From contig NC_135892.1 of the NCBI RefSeq assembly GCF_964194155.1, forward strand, positions 83,142,001-83,206,000: a DNA stretch of 64,000 bases, read 5' to 3'. The notes under the pieces are model-generated. The model had not been told where the DNA came from. It was given only the letters and a program-made list of their open reading frames with translations, and did no database searches. The translations under genes were made by a program, and so were the position numbers. Positions 117-61,385 of the stretch are shown piece by piece (the stretch's first letter is position 1; each line of letters opens with the position of its first letter). Source of the DNA: Cetorhinus maximus. Lineage: Eukaryota.

Positions 117-669
117 AGCAGGCTTGGCATACATTAAGCCAACTTGAGTCCAATCACTTAACAGTTTTTTTTCTGGCAAGCAACGTGGCTCAAAACTAGA
201 TTGAAGTTTGAGATTCAGGATATGTTGGTTTTACGCCAACCTGAAGAACTACACCCCCCCACCCGCCCCACCACCCCCCACAACCACGCCACCCCTAAAT
301 ATGACTAGAAACAAAGGAGGGTGTAAGATCCATTTGCACTATAGCCAAGGTTCAAGAATGCAAATGATGGGTTTAGACCAGAATAACAGGGTGAGCCCTG
401 AATTCCAACATTGACAACAGTAAAGCAGGGGTATCTTAGACTAGCAACCTAGAATGTATATTGCTGAGATATCAACGGTGAATTGTTGCATTTCATAGTG
501 CCAATAAGGTTATAACTAACTTTTGAATAGTCCCCTAAGTTTTTGTATTGTTCTTTATTTTGAAGGCTCTTTAGATTTCTCCTTTTCACACTATCTTCTG
601 TAAAATGAGGGGAAGGCTTTAAAATCTTACTTCCCAATAGGGATTTCCATCTTTTCTATTTATTCATTT

Positions 670-1080
670 GCTGGGGACAATGAAGATGAACAGCAGGCAA
701 CTCAGGAATTCAGATTTATAAGACAATACCGCAGGAGACTCAGACCTTCCTGCTGATAACTAGCCTCCTGCATGTGTATCTCTAATCATTCCTCAATATT
801 TCCATGGAGTTATCTATTACAAGGCCTTTGTATTGTGTGGGCATTTGCAGATGTTTCTTGAGTTACCTCTTGCTTCAGGATAGAAGGATCTCTGGCATAG
901 CCACAAAAGATGGCATTGAAATCTGCCATCATCTTTGAAATCTGTCACACACCTTCAGACAGTCTGCAGTGACTACATATGGTTCTGATGCTCCACAAGT
1001 GTTTGATCTCTTCCTGACAAGACCTCTACGATCATTGTCTGAATATTCAACAGCCACAATCTGACATGTCCTAAGCACCC
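670..1080 (+). mobile_element. Highly decayed Harbinger transposase N-terminal remnant (tentative)
   Basis: Weak resemblance by eye to the transposase N-termini at 24890-25010 and 54750-55050; no intact frame. Confidence 0.3.
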
Positions 1081-1109
1081 AGCCAAGTACATCAAGCTCC
1101 ACCGTTTTT

Positions 1110-1195
1110 AAATTCATTCACAGCTTCGCTGGCTGGGCCAGCATTTATTGCCCATCCATAGTTGCCCTTGAGAAGGTGGCGGTGAGCTGCCTCCA
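1110..1195 (-). mobile_element. 3' tail fragment of the tRNA-headed LINE/SINE family
   Basis: gccagcatttattgcccatcc...gcccttgagaaggtgg is the reverse complement of the LINE 3' end at 60600-60660. Confidence 0.85.
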
Positions 1196-1866
1196 ATACC
1201 TCATCCACTAGCTTCCTTGGGAGTTGTGAATCACCCTATGTTAATCCCTCATCCAGATTTTCTTATCATCCCACGTGAATCTATCTGGGCAGGGTAGCAC
1301 AAGGCTCACTGAATAGGCAGCAGTGTGAGGTATTAACCATTCTAATATTGGCCCTTCTCTTTCTCCACAGCACCATTCTTAGCTTCCAACTTCTGTAGAT
1401 ATAAGAAGAATGAGAAATGTAATGATATGCCTGCTATCCACTCGCTCCTTCTTGTTAGAAGCATGTAAGAGCCTCCTCAGAGTATGAGCCTTTAAAAAGG
1501 AAAAATAATTTATTTCCTCATCAACACAATCCAAACTATCTATGGGTGCAGGCCTGACCATGTTTCCATCCTCTCTAGCATTAGCTGAATGAGTTCCTAG
1601 GGTTTTCCACATTTCTTTCTTCAGGGGTCCAAGCAAATATCCCCTCCTGGTTTTCAGGCAAGGCTTACTTCCAGCTTTTGACCCACCTAGGCCTACCATG
1701 CATTGCTGACAATGTGCTGGGTCCTTCTGAGGATTAGGAGATGCTGGAACTCCTTTATGTTGGGAGCTCTCATTCCCACTAGCTGGGCAGCTGAAGCAGC
1801 AGTATGAAGTGCAACAGTATAAGGACAGTATCATAAAGAACACAATATGATCAGAAATGCAACAGT

Positions 1867-2212
1867 TAGGGTTGCCAAATGTGATTAAATGTATATCTGG
1901 AGATTTCATCATGCTTAGCCATTAGTCAGCCAACACATCCGTCCTTGTAATGCACTGCCTTCCTATGCCAGTTAGAAGCAAAAAGATTCATTGCCCAATT
2001 GGATGATGCTTGATTGTCAGCCAAACAGCCTTTGTCTCCCCCCGCCGCCCACCCACCCCCGTTTTCAATATTTTTATATCTGGTAAAGAGAAATGTTATG
2101 AAAATGACAAAAAGAATCTTTTTTAATGTCATGATAATTTTTGCACATTGTTTGGAGATTGAACTTCAATTCCTGGAGGCTCCAGGCCAATCCTGGAGGG
2201 TTGGCAACCCTA
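1867..2212. mobile_element. hAT-type non-autonomous DNA transposon (MITE)
   Basis: TIRs tagggttgccaa / ttggcaacccta; 8-bp TSD gcaacagt (1859-1866) / gcaacaat (2213-2220). An inverted relative lies at 39520. Confidence 0.88.
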
Positions 2213-3034
2213 GCAACAATGCAACCAATACACCAGAGCACTGGAGCATTCTCAGGAACAGCGCAGCAATTTGTGAAATACCAAAAGAAGCTACAACATG
2301 CAAAACAACATTGGGATATGATAAAAGTACAGCAGCACGAAGCAACATGAGAACAGTACAGAAACATAACAGCAATGCAACAATGTGAAGAAAAGGACAG
2401 GAGTACGAAGGATAATGCTAATCATCACGGCCATTCAGGTCAGGAGAACAGCATGTAGCGAGAACAAATTTAAGAATAACTAATGCTATATGACGCTAAT
2501 TGTATTACCGATTTGTTGAATTTATATTACCCTTTTCCAATGATCATGCATGTTGCATGAAGCATCATTGTTACATTATGTTGAATGGCAATGACTGTTA
2601 TAAAGGGACTCTCCCGTCCTATGGTTGCTTGTAGGTTTTGGCTACATGATTGAACGAAAAGAAAATGAAGCAGCCAAACTACTAGAGATGAAGAAAGAGT
2701 TTAAAAACTCTTTTACATTTGTGTTTTTGTCTTGCTGCTAGCAAGCACTTGCAACTGCAATTTACACAAAGAAAACCCACTGTATTAAAGCTGTGAAACC
2801 ACCAAGAGAAAAGCAACATGCTCATCTCACATCACCTATTCTATGGTACTTCCTGCTCAGTGTGAAAGACACCAGTGCTTGTCACAAGTCATTGACATTC
2901 TACAAATACGTTTCATGTAGTTATTAAAAAAAACTATTGCAAGTGTTTTTCCAATAAAATCAAGAGCGAGAGCAGTGGGCAACAGTTGATCAAACCACAA
3001 GCTTGGTCATTTTTCAATGATATTGATACTGCAG

Positions 3035-3165
3035 CAAAGAAAGAAAGAACTTGTTGCACCTTTCATGATATCAGGACACCCCAAAGCTTTTTGCAGCCTC
3101 TTTGAAGTGTAGTCACTGTTGTAATGTATGAAAGTACGGCAGACAATCTGCAGGCCCCAAAAGCA
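3035..3165 (-). mobile_element. 3' tail of a DeuSINE-type SINE
   Basis: Reverse complement of the tail seen at 18057-18145 and 40830-41000; ends in a (cttt)n-like repeat. Confidence 0.6.
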
Positions 3166-3293
3166 GCGAGGTGACTCACTTCGTGGGACTTGAAGCTAAC
3201 AGCTAAATACTCCCAAAATCTTCACACCATATCACATTGCAACGTTTGCTATATTAGAGATGATGTTGACTCTATTAAATGTTCAATAAATAA

Positions 3294-4831: not shown

Positions 4832-5545
4832 TTAAGACCATAAGACATAGGAGCAGAAATTAGGCCATTCGGCCCATCAAGTCTGCTCCACCATTCAATC
4901 ATGGCTGATAAGTTTCTCAACCCCATTCTCCCGTCTTCTCCCCGTAACCTTTGATCCCTTTACCAATCAAGAACCTATCTATCTCAGTCTTAAATACACT
5001 CAATGACCTGGCCTCCACAGCCTTCTGTGGCAATGAATTCCATAGATTCACCACTCTCTGGCTAAAGAAGTTTCTCCTCATCTCTGTTCTAAAAGACCTT
5101 CCCTTTACTCTGAGGCTGTGCCCTCGGATCCTAGTCTCTCCTACTAATGGAAGCATCTTCCCTACGTCCACTCTATCCAGGCCTTTCAGTATTCTGTAAG
5201 TTTCAATCAGATCCCCCCTCATCCTTCTAAACTCCATCGAGTATAGACCCAGAGTCCCTCAAACATTCCTCATACATTAAGCCTTTCATTCCTGGGATCG
5301 TTCTCGTGAACCTCCTCTGGACCCTCTCCAGGGCCAGAACATCCTTCCTGAGATACGGGGCCCAAAATTGCTCACAATATTCTAAATGTGGTCTGACCAG
5401 AGCCTTATAAAGCCTCGGCAGCACATCCCTGCTTTTATATTCTAGTCCTCTCGAAATAAATGCCAACATTGCATTTGCCTTCCTAACTACCGACTCAACC
5501 TGCAAGTTAACCTTAAGAGAATCCTGGACTAGGACTCCGAAGTCC
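4832..5545 (-). mobile_element. CR1 LINE, 5'-truncated (RT C-terminus plus 3' UTR)
   Basis: ORFs 5227-5583 and 4917-5237 carry LYKALVRPHLEYC and RGHSLRV...FFSQRVVNLWNSLP; (ccataaga) tail repeats. Confidence 0.93.
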
Positions 5546-5949
5546 CTAGGAATATCCAGCATGGACGCAAAGATGGATTGCACTTACTTTGATCACATTT
5601 AAATTCATTGGAACAAGCCATTCAGCACCTCAACCTGATTCTGTCATTCGATTAGATCATAACTGATCTGTATCTTGACTCCATTTACCCACTTACATCA
5701 AGCTGTACCTATCTACATCAATTTATCACCTATTACATCAATGAGAATAGGACTGCTGATGGATCTGACCATGGTGTATTTGGAATTTTCTCCCACTATT
5801 AAGAAAATACTATAAACACTCTGCAGGTCAATTGAAGGGTCCAGGCCAGCAGTGTTAACTTACCTGTTCTCTCCACAGCTGCTGATTCACCTGCTGAGTG
5901 TTTCCATCATGGTCACAGTCCCACGTCATTTGCTACTTTTATTAAGATC

Positions 5950-10672: not shown

Positions 10673-10728
10673 AGCCAAGCCCACTTTAATTTTCTGTCTG
10701 GAGATTGCTGAATGTAAAACCAGTAGTG

Positions 10729-10892
10729 AGGCGGTGGCGCAGTGGTATTGTCACTAGATTGGTAATCTAGAGACCAAGGGGAATGCTCTGGGGACCTGTG
10801 GTTCGAATCCTGCCATGGCAGATGGTGGAATTTGCCAACATGAAACCATTGTCGATTGTCGTGCAAAACCCACCTGGTTCAATCATGTCCTT
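10729..10892 (+). mobile_element. tRNA-derived SINE/LINE head forming the 5' part of a chimeric insertion
   Basis: A box tggcgcagtgg at 10735-10745 and B box ggttcgaatcc at 10800-10810; homologous to 28411, 46061 and 57546. Confidence 0.9.
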
Positions 10893-28410: not shown

Positions 28411-28760
28411 GAGAGATAGTGATGTAGTGGTAATGTTGCTGGGCTAGTAATCCAGAGACCCAGGCTAATACTGTGGGACATGGGTTCAAATCCTGCCATG
28501 GCAACTGGCCAATTCAATTCAATTAATAAACCTGAAATTGAAGCTACTCTCAGTAATAATCACCACAAAACTATTATCAATTGTTGTGAAAATCCATCTG
28601 GCTCTTGAGGAAATCTGCCATCTGTACTGAGTCTGGCCTACATATCCACAGTAATGTACCCTTTGAAATGGCCTAACAAGCCACTCGGCTCAAGACAATT
28701 CAGGATGGGCAGCAAATGCTGGCCTTGCCAGCATTGCCCTCATCCCATGAAAGGATAAAA
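28411..28760 (+). mobile_element. Full-length tRNA(Thr)-like SINE made of the LINE 5' head and LINE 3' tail
   Basis: A box at 28420-28430, ctagtaa anticodon loop at 28444-28450, B box ggttcaaatcc at 28483-28493. The body runs to gccactcggct and then joins the LINE tail caagacaattcaggatgggcagcaaatgctggcc. Confidence 0.9.
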
Positions 28761-31489: not shown

Positions 31490-31885
31490 CATAGACTCAC
31501 ACAACTACAGCACAGAAGGAGGCAATTCAGCCCATCGTGTCCATGCCAGTCAACAAAGATCTGACTACACTAATCCCATTTTCCAGCGCTTGGCCCATAG
31601 CCCTGGAGGCTATGGCAATGCAAGTGAATAGCTAAATACTTCTTAAATGTTGCGAGAGTTTCTGACTCAACCACCCTTTCAGGCAGTGAGTTCCAGACTC
31701 CCACCACCCCCTGGGTGAAAAAATTTCTCCTCAATTCCCCTCTTAGTCTTCCAATTCTTACCTTAAATCTATGCCCCTTGGTTATTGACCTCTCTACTAA
31801 TGGAAAAAGTGCCTTCCTATTCACCCTATCTATGCCCCTCATTATCTTATACACCTCTATCAGGTCCCCTCTCAACCTTCACTGT
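31490..31885 (-). mobile_element. CR1 3' fragment
   Basis: RGDLIEVYKIMRGIDRV...FFTQGVVGVWNSLP. Confidence 0.92.
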
Positions 31886-45369: not shown

Positions 45370-47909
45370 ACCTCTGTTTTTCAAACGTATCCCTCTGGAA
45401 ATGAATCCCTGTACTTTGTTATTTTTATGACTTTGTTAACCTGTGATGCCACTTCTAGTGATTTGTGTATATGTATCCCCAGATACACCTGTTCCTCTAC
45501 CCCACACTTATTTTCCAAGGACTATATGGCCTCCTTACCTTTCCTACCAAAATGTACCACCCTCACACTGGTGACATGCCTCCAGGCATTAGCATTAGGT
45601 TCCATTCAGAGAAGCTCTTCAATGTCTCCTGACAGCATTCCTCCACCACAGTCAGAAAGGTTGTAATCAAAGAGCTTCAGTGTGCAGATGAATGTGCTTC
45701 TACCCTAGCTGCCCATAATGAGAAAGACATCCAGACTATGGAAAATTCTCGAGCGCTGCCAAAAGCTTTCATCTCCAAATCAGTGTCTCCAAGGCCAAGG
45801 TTATGTTTCAGCTGGTGCCAGGTGCACACTATGAAGCATCAGATGTAACGATTAATGCACCAGCCTCTAGGTTGTAGAAAAATTGTCCAGAGATGCCACC
45901 ATTAATGAAGATATCTGCACACACATCCGGAAAGCAAGCTCTGCCTATGGCCAACTCCATAATTGTGCTTTGATGGAACATCACGTTAAGCTGACTAAAA
46001 TCAAACTTTACCAGGTCATTGTCTTCACTATTGTCCATTGTTCATTGCCATTGTCCTTCAGGGGAAACTGGTGGCGTAGTGGTAATGTCACTGACCAGTA
46101 ACCAAGAGGCCCAGGTTAATGCTATGGGGCCACGGCAGCTGGTGAAATTTAAATTCAATTAATAGATCTGGAATCAAAAAGTTAGTCTCTGTAATGGTGA
46201 CCAAAAAGCCATTGTCGATTTTTGTAAAAGTCCATCTGGTTCACTAATGTCTTTTAGGGAAGGAAATCTGCTGTCCTTACCTGTTCTGGCCTACATGTGA
46301 CTGCAGACCCACAGCAACGTGCTTGACTCTTAAATGCCTTCTCAAATGGCCTAGCAAGCTATACAGTTATATCAAACTCCAACAAGGTCAAAAAGGAATT
46401 AAACCAGACCTAACATCGACCTCGGCACTGGAAATAACAACAGCACACCCAGCCCTGTCGACCTTGCAAAGTCCTTCTTACTTACATCTGGGGGCTTGTG
46501 CCAGAATTGGGAATGTTGTCCCATAGACTAATCAAGCAACAGTCTGGCATAGCCATACTCACCGAATTATACCTTACAGACAATGTTCCAGACACCAGCA
46601 TCACCATCACCATCCCTGGGTATGTCCTCTCCCACTGTTATTACAGACCCACCAGAGGAGACAGTCAATGGTATACAGTCAGGAGGGAGTTGCCCTGGGA
46701 GCTCTCAACATCGACTCTGGACCCCATGAATTCTCCTCAGGTCAAACATGGGCAAGGAAATCTCCTGCTGATTACCACCCACTGCCCTTCATGTGCTGAT
46801 GAATCAGTATGCCTCCATGTTGAACACCAATTGGAAGAAGCACCGAGGGTGGCAGGGCACAGAATATACTCTGGGTGGAAGAATTCAATGTCCATCACCA
46901 AGAGTGGCCAGGTAGCATCATTACAGACTGAGCTGGCCAAGTCTTCAAGGACATTGCTGCTAGTTTGGGCCTGTGGCAGGTGGTGAGAGAACCAACAAGA
47001 GGGAAAAACCTACTTGACATTGCCCTCACCAACCTACCTGTCGCAGATGCACCTGGATGCATCTGTAGGAGTGACCACTGAACAGTCCTTGTGGAGACGA
47101 AATCCCAACTTCACATTGAGGATACCAGATTGCGAACAGATCTAGCAGCTCAAAACTGAACTCCAGAGGTGAGGTGAGAGTGACTGCCCTTGACATCAAG
47201 GCATCATTTGGCTGAGTGTGGCATCAAGGAACTGAAGTCAATGGGAATCAGGAGGAAAATTGGAGTCATACCTAGCACGAAAGAAGATGGTTGTGGTTAT
47301 TGAAGGTCAATAATTTCAGTTCCAGGACATCACTGCAGGAGTTCCTCAGGGTAGCATCCTCAGCCCAGCCATCTTCAGCTGCTTCATCAATGACCTTCCT
47401 TCCATCATAAGGTCAGAAGTGGGGATGTTCACTGATGATTGCACGATGTTCAGCACCATTCGCAACTCTTCAGATACTGAAGCAGTCCATGTCCAAATGC
47501 AGCAAGACTTGAACAATATCCAGGCTTGAGCTGATAAGTGGCAAGTAACATTCGCGCAACACAAGTGCCAGGCAATGACCATCTCCAACAAGAGAGAATC
47601 TAACCATCGACCCTTGATGTTCAATGGCATTATCATTGCTGAATCTCCCACTGTCAACATCCTGGGGGTTACCGTTGACCAGAAATTGAACTGGATCAGC
47701 CATATAAACACTATAGCTACAAGAGCAGGTCAACGGCTGGGAATTGAGATGCCTCCAGACTCCCCCAAAGCCTGTCCACCATCTACAAGGCACAAGTCAG
47801 GAATGTGCTGGAATACTCTCCGCTTACCTGGGTGAGTGCAGCTCCAACCACACTCCAGAAGCTCGACACCATCCAAGACATAGCAGCCAGCTTGATTGGC
47901 GCCCCATCC

Positions 47910-48968
47910 TCTCTCTCTCTCTAGCTGTCCTTCGAAGCGAGGAGGAGGACGCTTGCCACAGATCCTCTGGCAAGAGCTTTCACATGGAGTCTTTTGACAT
48001 GGGGAGGCCTTTCCACTTCAGCTACCACATGGTTCTGGCTGACCAAGGTGACCGAGGTGCAGAGGTATCTAGGTGTTCTCGTGCACGAGTCACAAAACGT
48101 TAGTATGCAGGTACAGCATGTAATCAAGAAGGCTAATGGAATGCTATCCTTTATTACGAGAGGAATTGAACATATAAGTAAGGATGTGCTTCAGTTATTC
48201 AGCACTGGTGAGACTGCATCTTGAATACTGTGTGCAGTTTTGGTCTCCTTATTTAAGGAAGGAGGTAAATGCATTGGAGGTGGTTCAGAGGAGGTTTACT
48301 AGATTGATACTTGGAATGAACGGATTGTCTCATGAGGAAAGATTAGACAGACTGGGCTTGTTTCCACTGGAATTTAGAAGAGTGAGGAGTTGGTTGAAGT
48401 ATATCAGATCCTGGATGGCCTTGACAAGGTGATTGTGGAAAGGATGTTTCCTCTTGTAAGCGAGTCCAAAACTAGGGGGCACAGTTTTAAAATTAGGGGT
48501 CACCCTTTTAGGACAGAGACGTGGAAATTTTTTTTCCTCAGAGGATTGCAAAATTTTAGAACTCTCTGCCTCAGAAGGTGGTGGAGGCGGGGTCACTGAA
48601 TATTTTTAAGGCAGAGGTAGATAGATTCTTGTTAGGCGAGGGAATAAAAGGTTGTCAGGAGTATATGGGAATGTGGAACTCAAAACACAAACAGATCAGC
48701 CATGATCTTATTGAATGGCAGAGCAGGCTCGAGGGGCCAAATGGCCTGCTTCTGCTCCTATTTCGTATGTCTGTATGTTCGTAAGAAACTCTCCCACTCT
48801 TAACATCTTCAGTAGGCATATCAGAAGGGTTTACAGGTTGAAAATCAACCTGCTTGGCCACACAACAAATGCACCTTTCACGGTCATTATCAGGTCCCGG
48901 GGTGGGACTCAAACCCAGAGCTTCTGGCCCATAGGTAGGATCGCTACTCACAGCACCACAAGACCTCC
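47910..48968 (-). mobile_element. tRNA-derived SINE with an RTE-like (AG)n tail, interrupted by a CR1
   Basis: Head ggaggtcttgtggtgctgtgag...ggtttgagtccc; 13-bp TSD tggcgccccatcc / tggcacaccatcc. Confidence 0.8.
48052..48783 (+). mobile_element. CR1 3' fragment, the innermost layer of the nest
   Basis: [20 protein letters not shown] and RGHSFKIRG motifs; tatg-type tail. Confidence 0.92.
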
Positions 48969-50372
48969 TGGCACACCATCCATCACCGATGCACAGAGGC
49001 AGCAGTGTGTACCATCTACAAGATGCACTACAGCAACTCACCAAGGCTCCTTCCAAACCTGTGACCACTACCACTAGAAGGACAAGGGCAGCAGATGCAT
49101 GGGAACACTGCCAACTGGAAGTTCCCCTCCAAGCCACTCCCGACTCTGACTTGGAAATATGTCTCTGTCACTTCACTGCCGCTGAGTCAAAATCCTGGAA
49201 CTCCTTCCCTAGCGGCACTCTGGGAGTACCTACACCATATGAACTGCTGCAGTTCAAGGATGTGGCTCACCATAACCTTCTCAATCCTGGAACTCCTTCC
49301 CTAGCAGCACTCTGGGAGTACCTACACCATATGAACTGCAGCAGTTCAAGGATGTGGCTCACCATCACCTTCTCAAGAGCAATTAGGGATGGGCAACAGA
49401 TGCTGGTCTTACAAGTGGTGTCCAATCCTGTGAAAGAATTTTTTTAAGTCCTGCTGTATGGCACAGAATCCTGGGTCTGTTATAGTCACCATATCAAAGC
49501 TCTGGAATGCTTCCAACAAAGACCCCTGAGGTCCACCATGAGGGTTCAATGGCAGAACAAAATCACACACAATGAGGCCCTCCATTGTGCTGGGCTCAGC
49601 AGCATAGAGACCACCCTCCAGAAAATTCAACTTAGATGGGGAGGCCTTCTCCTAAAATGTAATCCTGCATGGATGTCTACAGAATCCCCAAGCAGCTCTT
49701 CTATTGGGAACTGCAGGACAAACAACATCAAGGACACTCTAAAAAATAGCCATACAAACTTCTGCATTGCAGACTGCCTCTCTTGGGAAAACACTACAGC
49801 TGGCTGGCCCATTTGGATGCCAGCATTGAAATTTGGTTCAGCATCTTTCGAGAGCCATCTGCACCAAGCTTGCAACATCCAACATGCCCAGAGGAAGGCC
49901 CGAGGTGATGCATCTGCTGAAGGTCCCCTCACCACCATCAACAAAATGAACGGCCAATTCTGTGGACGTCCAGGTTGACCCTGCATTAGATTCTTCAGCC
50001 ATGAAGGGACCCACGGAAGATGATGAAATCACTTACATACTCGAACAATGAGGAATCTACCAGCAGTTTCTTACACTGATTTATACTGAGGTTCATTTGC
50101 CAATTACATGCAAGCTTATTAATGTTTTCCTCTATTTTGCCATAGTCCTCTGTATTCACTACACTGCCCAATTTGGTGTCATCTGCACATATTGAAATTG
50201 TAATTCCAATTCACAAGTACAAATCATTCATGTAAATGGTGGTGCACCATTCCTTGTGGAGTACCACTTTGCACCATTTGTCAATCCAAGTAATTATCTT
50301 TAACCCTTACACTCTGGTTTCTGTTTTGTAGCCAGATTACTATCCATCCTACTACTTGTGCCCGACTCCATG

Positions 50373-55774: not shown

Positions 55775-56470
55775 TAAAAACAAAATGCTGTGGATGCTGG
55801 ATAACTGAAATAAAAACAGGAAATGCTGGAAATGCTCAGCAGGTCTGGCAGCCTCTGTGGAAAAGGAAACAGAGATAACATTTCAGGCTGATGACCTTTC
55901 GTCAGAAGTGGGAAAAGCACAAAATGCAATAGGTTTTAAGCAAAGGGGAAATGGGGGAGAAAAGGACAAACAGGAAGCTCTGTGATAAAGTGGAAGGCAG
56001 AAGAGATTAAATAACAAAAGGGTCCATGGTGCAAGGCCAAAAGGAATGATAATGGAATGAGAAAAGAAATAAAAGATTTAACTAGAGGAGGTGTGAATGG
56101 CAGAGTCATGAACAAAATAAATAGGAATAGAATACGAAAGCAATAAATAGGAAAGAGAGAAAAATGAAAACCAGCAAAGAAAGGGGAAACAAGATGGGGG
56201 CAGAGGTTACAATCTAAAATTGTTGAACTCAATGTTGAGTTTGAAGTCTGTAAAGTGCCCAGTTGCAAGATGACATGCTGTTCCTCTAGCTTTTGTTGAG
56301 TTTCTTTGGACCACTACTGGAGACTGAGGGCAGAAAAGTCAGAGTGGGAGGAAGGGAAATTAAAATGACAGATGACTGAAAGCTCAAGGTCACATTTGCA
56401 GACTTGGAGGAGGTGCTCTGCAAAGTGGTCGCCCAATCTGCATTTGACCTCCCCAATGTAGAGGGCTTGT
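55775..56470 (-). mobile_element. Penelope-like element fragment (GIY-YIG endonuclease plus terminal repeat)
   Basis: LYIGEVKCRLGDHFAEHL...VICHFN. Smaller pieces of the same repeat lie at about 5810-5910, 17195-17300 and 34540-34600. Confidence 0.82.
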
Positions 56471-57545
56471 TCAATGAAAAGTACAGAAGACCATGGCAGG
56501 AATAGCACCAGGCATACCAAAAAGTGAGATGCAACCTGATGAAGCAGCATGTGTAATTAACAGCGGAGCGGCTTGCCAAAAACAGAGCTATGTGTTCCCA
56601 CAACCAACATATCAGGTCAAAGCTCTGCTGTCCAGCCACATCCAGTCATGAATGGTGGTGAACAATTAAACAACCAATGGAAGAGGAGGTTCCATGAGCA
56701 GCCCATCCTCAATGATGGAAGAACCCAGTAGGTCAGTGCAAAAGACAAGGCTGAAACACTTGCAACCACTTTCAAACAGAAGTACTGAGCGGATTATCCA
56801 TCTCGGTCTCCTCCTGAGGTCCCCAGCATCACAGATGTCAGTCTTCAATCAATTTTATTCAGTGTGTGTGTTATCAAGGAATACTGAGCGCACTGGATAC
56901 ATCAAAGGCTATGCACCCTGACAACATCCCAGCTGTAGTGTTAAGCTTTTGTACCCCAGAACTAGCCACACCTCTAGACAGCCTAGACAGGCTGTTCCAG
57001 TACAGCTACAAAACTGGCATCTATTCAACAAAGTTGAAAATTACCAAGGTATGTTCTGTCCACAAAAAACAGGACAAATGCAATCCACGCCTCAATTATT
57101 AACAAAGTAGTGCAAGTTGCCATTAACAGTGCTGTCAAGCAGCACTTATTCATCAGTAACCTTCTTACCAACACTCAGTTTGGGTTCTACCAGGGCCACT
57201 CAGCTCCAGAACCCATTACAGCCTTAGTCCAAACATGGAAAAAAGAACTGAATCCCAGCAGTGAGGTGAGAGTGACTGGCCTTGATATCAAGGCAGCATT
57301 TGACCAAGTGTGGCATCAAGGTGCTCTAGTAAAGTCAATGTGAAGCAGGGGGAAAAACCTCCATTGGCTGGAGTCATAACTGGCTTAAAGAGAGATTTGG
57401 TTATAGTTGTTGGAGGCCAATAATCTCATCCCCAGAACATCACAAAGAGCTCCTCAGGGCAATGACCTAGGCCTAAACATTTATAGCTGCTTCATCAATG
57501 ACCTTCTCTCCATCTTAAAGTCAGAAGTGGGGATGTTTGCTGATT
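56470..57545 (+). mobile_element. Older copy of the tRNA-headed LINE family, left part
   Basis: Collinear with 58790-59880; broken at the FADD motif by the younger copy. Confidence 0.88.
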
Positions 57546-60500
57546 GGGGGGAGGCGATGGCATAGTGGTATTGTCGTTGGACTAGAAATCCAGAGTCCCA
57601 GGTTAATGCTCAGATTTGAACCCCGCCTCGGCAGATGGTGGAATTTGAATTCAATAAAAATCTGGAATGAAAAGTCTAATGATGACCATGAAAACATTGT
57701 CGATGGTTGCGAAAACCCATCTGGTTCACTAATGTCCTTTAGGGAAGGAAATCTGTCATCCATACCTGGTCTGGCCTACATGTGACTCCAGACCCACAGC
57801 AATGTGGTTGACTCTGAAATGGCCTGGCAAGCCACTCAGTTGTAACAAACCACTACAAAGTCACAAAAATGAAATGAAACCGGACGGACTACCCAGCATC
57901 GACCTAGGCACCGGAAACGACAATGGCAATCTCAGCCCTGTCGACCCGGCAAAGTTCTCCTTGCTAACATCTGGGGGCTAGTGCCAAAATTGGGAGACTA
58001 GTCACAGACTATTCAAGCAACAGCCTGACATGAAATCATATCTTACAGCTAATGTCCCAGACACCACCATCACCATCCTTGGGTATGTCCTGTCCCACCA
58101 GCAGGACAGACCCAGTAGAGGTGGCAGCACAGTGGTATGCGGTTGGGAGGGAGTCCCCAACATTGACTCCGGACCCCATGAATTCTCATGGCATCAGGTC
58201 AAACATGGGCAAGGAAACCCCCTGCTGATTACCACGTGCCGCCCTCCCTCAGCTGATGAATCAGTGCTCCTCCATGTTGAACACCACTTGGAGAAAGCAC
58301 TGAGGGTGGCAAGGGTGCAGAATGTACTCTGGGTGGAGGACTTCAATGTCCATCACCAAGTGTAGCTCGGTAGCACCACTACTGAGCGAGCTGGCCAAAT
58401 CCTAAATGACATAGCTGCTAGACTGGGTCTGCAGCAGGTGGTGAGGGAACCAACAAGAGGGGAAAATATACTTGATCTCATCACCCTGCCTGCCGCAGAT
58501 GCATCTGTCCATGACAGTATCGATAGGATTGACCACCGCACAGTCGTGGAGACGAAGTCACATTGAGGATCACCTCCATCATGTTGTGTGGCACCACCAC
58601 TGTGCTAAATGGGATAGGTTTTGAACAGATCTAGCAACTCAAGACTGGACATCCATATGGCAGCACTGTGGGCCATCAACAGCAGCAGGATTGTATTTGA
58701 ACACAATTTGTAACCTCGTTGCCCGGCCTATCCCCCACTCTACCATTACCATCAAGTCAGGGGATCAACCCTGCTTCAATGCAGAGTCCAGGAGGGCATG
58801 CCAGGGGCAGCGCCAGGCATACCTAAAAATGAGGCGTCAACCTGGTGAAGCTATAACACAGGACGACTTGCGTGGCAAACAACATAAGCAGCAAGTGATA
58901 GACAGAGGTAAGCAACCCCACAACCAATGGATCAGATCTAAGCTCTGCAGTCCTGCCACATCCAGTCGGGAATGGTGGTAAACCACTCGCTAGAGAAGGA
59001 AGCTCCACAAAAATCCCCATCCTCAATGATGGAGGAGCCCTGCGCATCAGTGCAAAAGATGAGACTGAAGCATTTGCTACAATCTTCAGCCAGAAGTGCT
59101 GAGTGAATGATCCATCTCGGCCTCCTCCAGAGGCCCCCAGCATCACAGATGCCAGCCTTCAGCCAATTCGATTCACTCCACATGAAATCAAGAAACGACA
59201 GATGGCACTGGATACTGCAAAGGCTATGGTCCCTGACAATATTCCAGCAATAGTACCGAACACTTGTGCTCCAGAACTTGCTGCGCCCCTAGCCAAGCTG
59301 TTCCAGTACAGCTACAACACTGGCATCCACCCAGCTATGTGTAAAATTGTCTAAGTATGTCTTGTACACAAAAAGCAGGACAAATCAAACCCAGCCAATT
59401 ACTGCCCCATCAGTCTACTCTCGATCATCAGTAAACTAATGGAAGGGGTCATCAACAGTGCTATCAAGTGGCACTTGCTTAGCAATAACCTGCTCACTGA
59501 CACCCAGTTTGGGTTCCGCCAGGGCCACTCAGCTCCTGACCTCATTACAGCCTTGGTTCAAATATGGACAAAAGAGCTGAACTCCCAAGGTGGGGTGAGA
59601 GTGACTGCCCTTGACATCAAGGCAGCATTTGACTGAGTGTGGCATCAAGGAGCTCCAGCAAAACTGGAGTCAATGGGAATCAGGGGGAAAACTCTCCACT
59701 GGTTGGAGTCATATCTACCACAAAGGAAAATGGTTGTGGTTGTTGCAGGTCAGTCATCTCAGCTCCAGGACATCACTGCAGGAGTTCCTCAGGGTAGTGT
59801 CCTAGGCCCAACCATCTTCAGCTGCTCCATCAATGACCTTCCTTCCATCATAAGGTCAGAAGTGGGGATGCTCGCTGATGATTGCAAAACGTTCAGCACC
59901 ATTCGCGACTCCTCAGATACTGAAGCAGTCCATGTCCAAATGCAGCAAGGCCTGGACAATATCCAGTCTTGGGCTGACAAGTGACAAGTAACATTCATGC
60001 CACACAAGTGTCAGGCAATGACCATCTCCAACAAGAGAGAATCCTACCAGCACCCCTTGATGTTCAATGACATTACCATCACTGAATCCCCCACTATCAA
60101 CCTCCTAGGGGTTACCATTGACCGGAAACTGATATAAATACTATGGCTATAAGAGCAGGTTAGAGGCCAAGAATCCTGTGATGAGTAACTCATCTCCTGA
60201 CTCCCCAAAGCCTGCCCACCATCTAGAAGGCACAAGTCAGAAGTGTGATGGAATACTCCCCAACCGCCTGGATGAGTGCAGCTCCCACAACACTCAAGAA
60301 GCTCGACATCATCCAGGACAAAGCAGCCCGCTTGATTGGCACTGCAGGAATTCACCAAGGCTCCTTCGTCAGCACCTTCCAAACCCCCAACCATTACCGT
60401 ATAGAAGGACAAGGACAGCACAACCATTACCATATAGAAGGACATGGGAACACCACCACCTGGAAATTCCCCTCCAAATCACTGACTTGGAAATATATCG

Positions 60501-60692
60501 CCATTCTTTCACTGCCATTGGGTCAAAATCCTAGAACTCCCATCCTAACAGCACTGTGGGTGTACCTACACCACATGGACTGTAGCAGTTCAAGAAGGCA
60601 GCTCACCACCACCTTCTCAAGGGCAACTGGGGATGGGCAATAAAAGTTGGCCCAGCCAGCAAAGCCCATATCCTGTGAATACATTTTTAAAA
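57546..60692 (+). mobile_element. tRNA-headed LINE, copy 2, near full length (about 3.15 kb; single EN-RT ORF, now disrupted)
   Basis: A box at 57558-57568. ATG 57819 is in frame with RHRKRQ...KVLLANIWGLVPKLG. Endonuclease EDFNVHH and RT GVPQGSVLGPTIF / LADDC motifs; tail at 60600-60692. Confidence 0.93.
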
Positions 60693-61385
60693 ATGTTCAC
60701 TGTGTTTAACTTCATTCACAACTCCTCAGCTAATGACGCAGTCTAGGCCTGCTTGCAGCAAGTCCTGGATATCATATAGGCTTGGGCTGATAACTGGCAC
60801 CACACAAACACCTGGCAATGACCATCTCCAACAAGAGACAGTCTGACCACCTCTGCTTGACATTCAATGGCTTCACTAACACCAAATCCTCCACCATTAA
60901 CACCTAGTTGTCACCATTGAATTCTTTCACCTGAATGAACCAGTCACACAAATATCTACAGCAACAAGAGCAGGTGAGAGACTAGATATTCTGCATCAAA
61001 AGACTCATCCCCTGACTCCTCAAAGCCTTTGAGGCGTGTGTGTGCTATCTACAAGCTGCGCTGCAGCATCTTGCCAAAGCTTTTTCAACAGCACCTCCCA
61101 AACTCATGACCTCTACCACCTAAAAGGACAAGGGCAACTGCTGTCTAGGAACACCACCACCTGCAAGTTCCCCTCCAAGTCACACATTGTCCTGGCTTGC
61201 AAATAGATTGCATCGTCACTGGATCAAAATTCTGAAACTTCTAACTTAACAACACGATTGATCTACCTCTACTACACAAACCGCTGTAGTTCAGAAACTG
61301 GCCAACCAGCACCTTCTCAATTGCATTTAGGGATGAACAATAAATTATGAGCTTGCCAGTGACACCCACAGCCCTTAATGAATAC
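60693..61385 (+). mobile_element. Older LINE copy, right part
   Basis: Resumes the RT just after FADD and ends with the family tail. Confidence 0.85.

Follow-up and report, generated by a model that had tools for sequence, protein, structure and literature searches.

The short interspersed element (SINE) at 28411-28760 of the window, the 64,000-nt stretch of the Cetorhinus maximus genome analysed here, belongs to a set of SINE families that probably arose by repeated internal deletion of a tRNA-headed LINE, likely at least three times in the lineage. An earlier note on this DNA had offered two explanations: either the SINE was formed by deletion of the whole ORF, or the LINE captured its own SINE as a promoter. 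The comparison of SINE and LINE copies favours deletion, because no SINE-only sequence was found, the three junction families each have their own LINE head type, and the SINE heads do not form one clade. Capture is disfavoured as an account of the present SINE, and it retains a place as an earlier gain of the head by the LINE.

Structure of the SINE and its junction

The features of the window are collected in Table 1. The SINE had been described as a LINE 5' end joined near 28690 to a LINE 3' end, and BLAST comparison of both ends bears this out. The head (28425-28686) matches LINE positions 57563-57837 with 191 of 292 positions identical (65%, 16% gaps, E 2e-15), and the tail (28689-28751) matches positions 60616-60679 with 47 of 64 identical (73%, E 4e-5). 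At the junction, LINE position 57841 is joined to 60618 (60617 if the single shared T is counted). In this junction type, designated J1, a 315-nt LINE head is followed by the last 75 nt of a 3.3-kb single-ORF LINE. The homology of the tail, put at ~70 bp in the earlier note, thus stands, but its length is corrected to 75 nt and its start lies inside the ORF, so that it contains the last four codons and the stop.

The claim that all of the SINE is LINE-homologous holds at the family level but not against the LINE copy at 57548. A ~9-nt stretch characteristic of head type B is present in the SINE and in the type-B LINE at 46072 and is absent from the type-A copy at 57548. In aligned columns, the head of the window SINE is 85% identical to consensus B and 82% identical to each of consensus A and C. 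SINE-only sequence, which would have spoken against deletion, was sought and none was seen, the whole SINE being colinear with the LINE 5' and 3' ends. The tRNA-like part of the SINE has an insert of ~20 nt between the anticodon arm and the T arm. The element is short, non-coding and present in high copy number, with a LINE-derived 3' tail, and its 30 best matches form a family of ~375 nt with a single junction.

Table 1. SINE, LINE and related features of the window
Feature	Position	Strand	Remarks
SINE copy, junction family J1, head type B	28411..28760	+	decayed, ~15% from its consensus
tRNA-Thr(AGT)-like part of SINE	28411..28500	+	A box 28420-28430, B box 28483-28493
Conserved SINE body common to LINE 5' region	28575..28690 (start approximate)	+	several short deletions in the window copy; ATG at 28668
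Deletion junction J1	28690..28691	+	LINE consensus 315 to 3217, 1-nt microhomology
LINE-derived SINE tail	28691..28760	+	last ORF codons, nested stem-loop, A-rich end
Near-full-length decayed Zenon-type LINE, head type A	57548..60690	+	88.6% to family consensus
tRNA-derived head and body of LINE	57548..57841	+	A box 57558-57568; B box region deletion-damaged; ATG at 57819
LINE tail common to SINE	60618..60690	+	
Second headed LINE, head type B (as in SINE)	46072..49440	+	
3'-truncated head fragment of the same LINE/SINE family	10728..10892	+	

The LINE family

The LINE consensus, based on 10 near-full copies, is 3,291 nt long and consists of the 315-nt head and one ORF of ~970 codons whose stop falls within the shared tail. 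There is no ORF1, and no ORF lies upstream of the main one within the head. Three of four stretches searched gave Pfam matches to endonuclease and reverse transcriptase (RT) domains (PF14529, PF03372, PF00078), and the 3' ends of the LINE copies are A-rich, as expected of a poly-A tail. The copy at 57548 likewise contains one endonuclease-reverse transcriptase ORF, with stops and frameshifts, and no ORF1; older fragments of its family surround or adjoin it on the same strand (56466-57544 and 60713-61383). The second headed copy has an internal deletion of ~1 kb and a tandem duplication near its 3' end, and is interrupted at about 48050-48780 by a CR1 3' fragment. This fragment and those at 4860-5550 and 31530-31880 are 3' parts of two canonical CR1 families, which served as controls. 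As a side observation, the first ~45 residues of a public shark transporter gene model (P0001) are LINE endonuclease, reflecting either exonisation or an annotation error.

Junction families and abundance

The genome of 4.0 Gb was scanned for exact junction words (20 nt for J1), with reversed words as the control (all 0). The scan yielded 4,360 matches for J1 (315 to 3217, the type of the window SINE), 5,974 for J2 (292 to 3217), 161 for J3 (318 to 3188), and 3,131 for one variant of the word that spans the head-to-ORF boundary of the LINE; all of these counts are lower bounds, since the copies are 10-25% decayed. Mapping of junction microhomology, a check proposed in the earlier note, gave 1, 0 and 0 nt for J1, J2 and J3, respectively, which decides for neither deletion nor capture; with 0-1 nt at the junctions, microhomology-driven deletion was discarded.

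In a random sample of 800 kb (80 evenly spaced 10-kb stretches), of which the family covers about 7.9%, 42 heads were found (43 by a stricter first pass), comprising 6 LINE, 6 J1, 8 J2, 2 J3, 11 with other junctions and 9 head-only elements. Many of the heads with other junctions are J1 or J2 copies with later small deletions. In this sample, LINE 3' ends outnumber ORF 5' ends about fivefold (33-44 vs 7-9), which is a high share of long copies for a CR1-group LINE. Of 15 ORF starts in 1.33 Mb of sequence that was not selected for LINE heads, 12 have the head, the other three having unrelated flanks. Neither a different LINE 5' end nor a headed family with a foreign tail was found among these ORF starts, the 9 head-only elements and the other elements listed.

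Candidate target-site duplications were seen for 1 of 9 J1, 4 of 11 J2 and 0 of 4 LINE copies, with 7-13% in controls. Contigs from public runs contain the headed LINE in at least three organisms and a J2-like joint in two. Older deletion derivatives in which more of the LINE is left on each side of the junction (breaks near 316-335 and 3167-3227) occur at L154:-, L162:+, L192:+, L084:+, L213:+ and L231:+, and possibly represent further small families. An apparent deletion at L156 was actually a SINE nested in a LINE.

Direction of change between SINE and LINE

Label-blind clustering of 178 full heads (k=3, leaving out copies with other junctions and heads with at least 90 missing columns) defined cluster A with 67 LINE and 29 J2 heads (11% from consensus), cluster B with 18 LINE, 48 J1, 3 J2 and 1 J3 heads (14%), and cluster C with 3 LINE and 9 J3 heads (22%). 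By these distances, A, B and C appear to be head types of rising age. LINE and SINE heads are still mixed at k=4-6. A maximum-likelihood tree was built for 86 heads with CpG columns dropped (18 of the 67 LINE-A, all 21 other LINEs, 19 J1, 18 J2 and 10 J3). In this tree, which is weak (stars on 5 of 83 inner branches; copies chosen mostly by query or pattern), SINE and LINE heads are interleaved; the LINE label needs 14 changes, and none of 200 bootstrap trees has a branch that sets the LINE heads apart from the rest. A single clade of all SINEs is rejected (AU p=0.027) and a clade of J1 and J2 is not (AU p=0.057). A phylogeny of SINE versus LINE heads had been suggested in the earlier note as the means of setting the direction; obtained here for the heads of one genome, it favours repeated deletion over capture of the present SINE.

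The individual junctions are informative as well. J2 is without head positions 293-315 (23 nt), which LINEs of all head types keep, and therefore the type-A LINE cannot be a captured J2. J3 keeps 3 LINE bases past the J1 break and 29 more nt of the ORF end, holding LINE-only bases on both sides of its junction. The tail variant T-TA was found in 17 of 30 J2 copies (6 unreadable), 5 of 23 head-to-tail LINEs and 1 of 71 J1 copies. The variant C-TT was found in 42 of 71 J1 copies (15 unreadable), none of the 23 head-to-tail LINEs and 3 of 92 LINE 3' ends; its near-absence from LINE ends means that the parent LINE subfamily of J1 was not caught. J1 and the LINE have polymorphisms in common, namely TAG/GAG at codon 3 and LINE-like body alleles in 8 J1 copies, and some exchange between SINE and LINE heads is likely. 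Two arguments based on the reading frame were dropped. Retention of the LINE start codon by the SINE is not used as evidence given the common codon-3 stop, described below, and the in-frame status of J1 has a 1-in-3 chance of arising at random, J3 being out of frame.

Two other histories have to be weighed against repeated deletion. The SINEs could form a single lineage that originated by one deletion and was shortened stepwise (J3, then J1, then J2), with SINE and LINE heads held in joint evolution by template switching or conversion within the head they have in common. The junctions are indeed nested, the age order from C through B to A follows the shortening, J1 and J2 have the same 3' breakpoint, and both the AU value for J1 and J2 and the polymorphisms common to J1 and the LINE agree with such a history. 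We nevertheless consider it unlikely, since both ends of J2 (head A and tail T-TA) match LINE-type alleles and not those of J1, and a single lineage would thus need a deletion and two swaps instead of one deletion. Less probable still is the classical order followed by capture, whereby a tRNA SINE borrowed a Zenon tail and the LINE later took the head and body of that SINE as its 5' end. This history accommodates the head as a derived gain, and its steps have parallels in the conventional SINEs with Zenon tails of bivalves (PMC11481361) and in the jumps of LINE reverse transcriptases to small RNAs (R2; PMC3414825). However, the capture must have stopped exactly at the borrowed tail, with no gap or overlap, for three junctions; the 23 nt missing from J2 and the LINE-only bases flanking the J3 junction speak against it, as does the lack of a headed family with another tail among the 9 head-only elements of the random sample and the others listed.

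Probable earlier gain of the head by the LINE

Repeated deletion of the LINE, the preferred reading, leaves a place for capture at an earlier stage. No matches to the head were found in 80 related metagenome loci (up to 42% identity), and the Zenon elements of hagfish and coelacanth have T-run-rich 5' ends without the head (first 400 nt, compared by eye), which implies that the LINE gained its tRNA-derived head earlier. The five published elasmobranch Zenon consensuses, one of them from a ray, all start with the head, that of Squalus being type C (again by eye over the first 400 nt). Head capture followed by deletions is the likely order, and the two branches posed in the earlier note would then be successive rather than exclusive.

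In the proposed mechanism, the elasmobranch Zenon ancestor would have gained the head by a template jump of its reverse transcriptase to the RNA of a tRNA or of a now unseen SINE; jumps to small RNAs (snU12, tRNA) are documented for the R2 enzyme (PMC3414825). With the promoter and the RT-recognition tail placed at opposite ends of one RNA, any deletion that kept both would produce a complete SINE at once, and this SINE would be copied in trans by the LINE protein. RNA polymerase III (Pol III) would transcribe both the SINE and the whole LINE, from which terminator-like T-runs would consequently have been purged.

tRNA-like head, conserved body and tail fold

When aligned with a genomic tRNA-Thr(AGT) that ARAGORN recognises (L501), the head consensus matches it in 42 of 56 paired columns; the head has a 20-nt insert and keeps the A and B boxes, and the alignment score is reached by 0 of 2,000 dinucleotide shuffles; this tRNA was picked by a pattern taken from the head, and the Thr isotype is a best match rather than the outcome of a survey. 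Decayed head copies gave no tRNA call by ARAGORN or Rfam, and a weak T-arm match in 2 of 10 loci.

A block of 120 nt in the body, ahead of the ORF (head columns 185-305, window ~57705-57818), has 1-2 differences among consensus A, B and C, compared with 8-26 of 90 positions in the tRNA part, and by eye it looks equally fixed in the five published elasmobranch species. The folding z-scores are -0.36 for the body alone, -2.76 for the whole head and -2.15 for the tail. The tail folds as a nested stem-loop with its variable sites mostly in loops; two-sided change was seen in 1 of 13 stem pairs, which is no proof of covariation. This stem-loop could fix a minimal 3' boundary for the element.

Depletion of T-runs, transcription and translation of the LINE

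Runs of T end transcription by Pol III. The sense strand of the LINE consensus has no TTTT in its 3,291 nt and 5 TTT, compared with 46 AAA, 50 CCC and 41 GGG. With codon usage fixed, 3 TTT are present in the ORF vs 11.9 expected, and 0 of 3,000 shuffles were as low; runs of the other three bases match expectation, and no depletion is seen on the antisense strand. In the same genome, the two CR1 control families have 9 TTTT in 1,940 nt and 8 in 1,748 nt. TVTTT, a moderate Pol III terminator (PMC9599045), occurs 12 and 5 times in these controls and is absent from the LINE. Single copies give the same picture, with 0.50 TTTT per kb in the LINE (320 pieces) vs 4.83 and 4.52 in the controls; for the LINE, the random sample by itself yields 0.38, and copies that equal the controls in decay yield 0.98. 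All 79 related RT loci contain TTTT (median 5.15 per kb, lowest 0.74), and their observed/expected ratio for TTT is at least 0.57 in every case, vs 0.23 in the LINE. The absence of TTTT taken alone is not significant (P=0.12 by synonymous and P=0.16 by dinucleotide shuffles), and the depletion of TTT against dinucleotide shuffles has P=0.01. One TTTT is present in the 1,773 nt of the LINE-B 5' consensus. With 1.9% Phe, the LINE protein ranks second from the bottom when compared with 31 homologues of similar length (1.8-6.3%), as would fit T avoidance extending to the protein.

Ten ATGs precede the LINE ORF. Of 103 copies, 84 have the head ATG, located 22 nt ahead of the junction, in the endonuclease frame (at 147 or 144 nt), and 61 carry a stop at codon 3 counted from this ATG (TAG in 58 of 103). 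Codon 9 of the ORF is TAA in 41 of 103 copies, and CAA follows both the TAG and the TAA. The next in-frame Met after the head ATG is codon 294. A second ATG, always at 92 nt (86 copies), opens a frame of 35 codons that overlaps the start of the endonuclease. By eye, all five published elasmobranch Zenon consensuses carry the codon-3 stop, with a different frame in RhiTyp and SquAca. The LINE ORF thus appears to have no usable AUG near its start (window 57819-57980; consensus codons 1-50), and read-through, a frameshift or a non-AUG start are all possible. Our guess is that initiation may be independent of a cap or begin at a non-AUG codon, either of which would suit an uncapped Pol III RNA.

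The purge of T-runs may serve read-through by Pol III. We tentatively propose, at somewhat less than an even chance, that the LINE is transcribed by Pol III from end to end, starting at a captured tRNA-Thr promoter; its terminators would have been purged over 3.3 kb, and its cap-less RNA would be translated without a usable AUG by way of the ultraconserved 120-nt block, making the LINE a standing SINE factory. An explanation that concerns the LINE only comes close to an even chance: Pol II makes the LINE RNA, the tRNA head is a relic or an RNA structure, and T-runs are avoided on other grounds such as splicing or 3'-end signals, RNA decay or codon bias. The accepted view is that LINEs are transcribed by Pol II (PMC10886601, PMC5786205), and uncapped Pol III RNA is hard to translate. 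Ten ATGs come before the ORF, most copies have a stop after the in-frame ATG, and the T fraction of the LINE is low (0.20). On the other hand, Pol II transcription leaves unexplained the ORF deficit of TTT under fixed codon usage, with other runs and the antisense strand normal, and the absence of TVTTT. No such purge is seen in the two Pol II-type CR1 families of the same genome or in the 79 relatives, and the A and B boxes persist in five species.

Relation to known elements

Judging by its length and first 400 nt, the LINE is an elasmobranch Zenon, a member of the CR1 group. A 14-nt head-to-ORF word occurs at 6 places in the supplement of Stuart et al. 2026 (PMC13343379), and the published consensuses CarCar_Zenon-1, HypSab_Zenon-1, RhiTyp_Zenon-1, ScyCan_Zenon-1 and SquAca_Zenon-1 are 3,244-3,314 nt long, compared with 3,291 nt here. 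By eye they have the same head, body and ORF start over the first 400 nt, and they are likewise described as having no ORF1, an endonuclease and RT, and an A-rich tail (PMC13343379). The main text of that paper makes no mention of tRNA, promoter, polymerase III, internal deletion or non-autonomous elements, nor does it describe the head, the SINE families or the T-run purge.

In origin, the SINE appears to be a SIDE, and in anatomy a tRNA-derived SINE (SINE2). The Persaeus SIDE of Lepidoptera is also an internal-deletion derivative of Zenon, consisting of the 5' region, ORF end, 3' UTR and poly(A); it is reported to have arisen at least four times, with activity that tracks the LINE (PMC6740152). 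In contrast to the tRNA-headed SINE described here, Persaeus is reported to lack both tRNA homology and a Pol III promoter and is expressly not classed as a SINE. Its central part varies, and short direct repeats were noted at the edges of the deletion, whereas the junctions here have no filler and 0-1 nt of microhomology (PMC6740152). The bipartite-LINE SINEs Bov-tA, CoeSINE4, SINE2_Gav and WALLSI2 (Kojima 2018, PMC5786205) similarly combine a tRNA head with LINE 5' and LINE 3' parts. There the head was added after the deletion and the LINE is without it, while here the autonomous LINE itself bears the head. The clades named for such SINEs are RTE, Ingi, Vingi and R2, and a tRNA-like sequence has been noted in RTE-1_DAn (PMC5786205).

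The HE1 V-SINE of sharks and rays, with its partner LINE HER1, is another tRNA-derived elasmobranch SINE whose tail is common to a CR1-group LINE (PMC3747384, PMC4824008, PMC2911107). Identity with HE1 is unconfirmed and probably wrong: HE1 is described as having no poly(A) tail (PMC2911107), whereas the SINE here ends A-rich. Searches for the V domain (~80 bp) with motifs of the SINE body gave 0 matches in the supplements of four HCD-SINE papers, which may not contain sequences as text. No account of a shark LINE with a tRNA head or with Pol III transcription turned up in the literature search; names for the SINEs may exist in Repbase, Dfam, subscription papers or other supplements.

Conclusions

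This system appears to be a variation on known kinds of element, namely Zenon LINEs, SIDEs and SINE2 elements, in which a tRNA head on an autonomous LINE is combined with SINEs probably cut from that LINE. The system is genome-wide and common to sharks and rays. It offers a way of making a SINE in one step, the reverse of the textbook order in which a head is added to a borrowed tail, with three dated replicates of this route in one genome. The SINE body is here plainly LINE 5' sequence, which bears on the origin of conserved SINE bodies. If the T-run purge means what it seems, the LINE would be a natural 3.3-kb coding RNA made by Pol III. It could then be tested whether a LINE can live on Pol III, and how an RNA can be translated whose sole nearby in-frame ATG leads into a stop.
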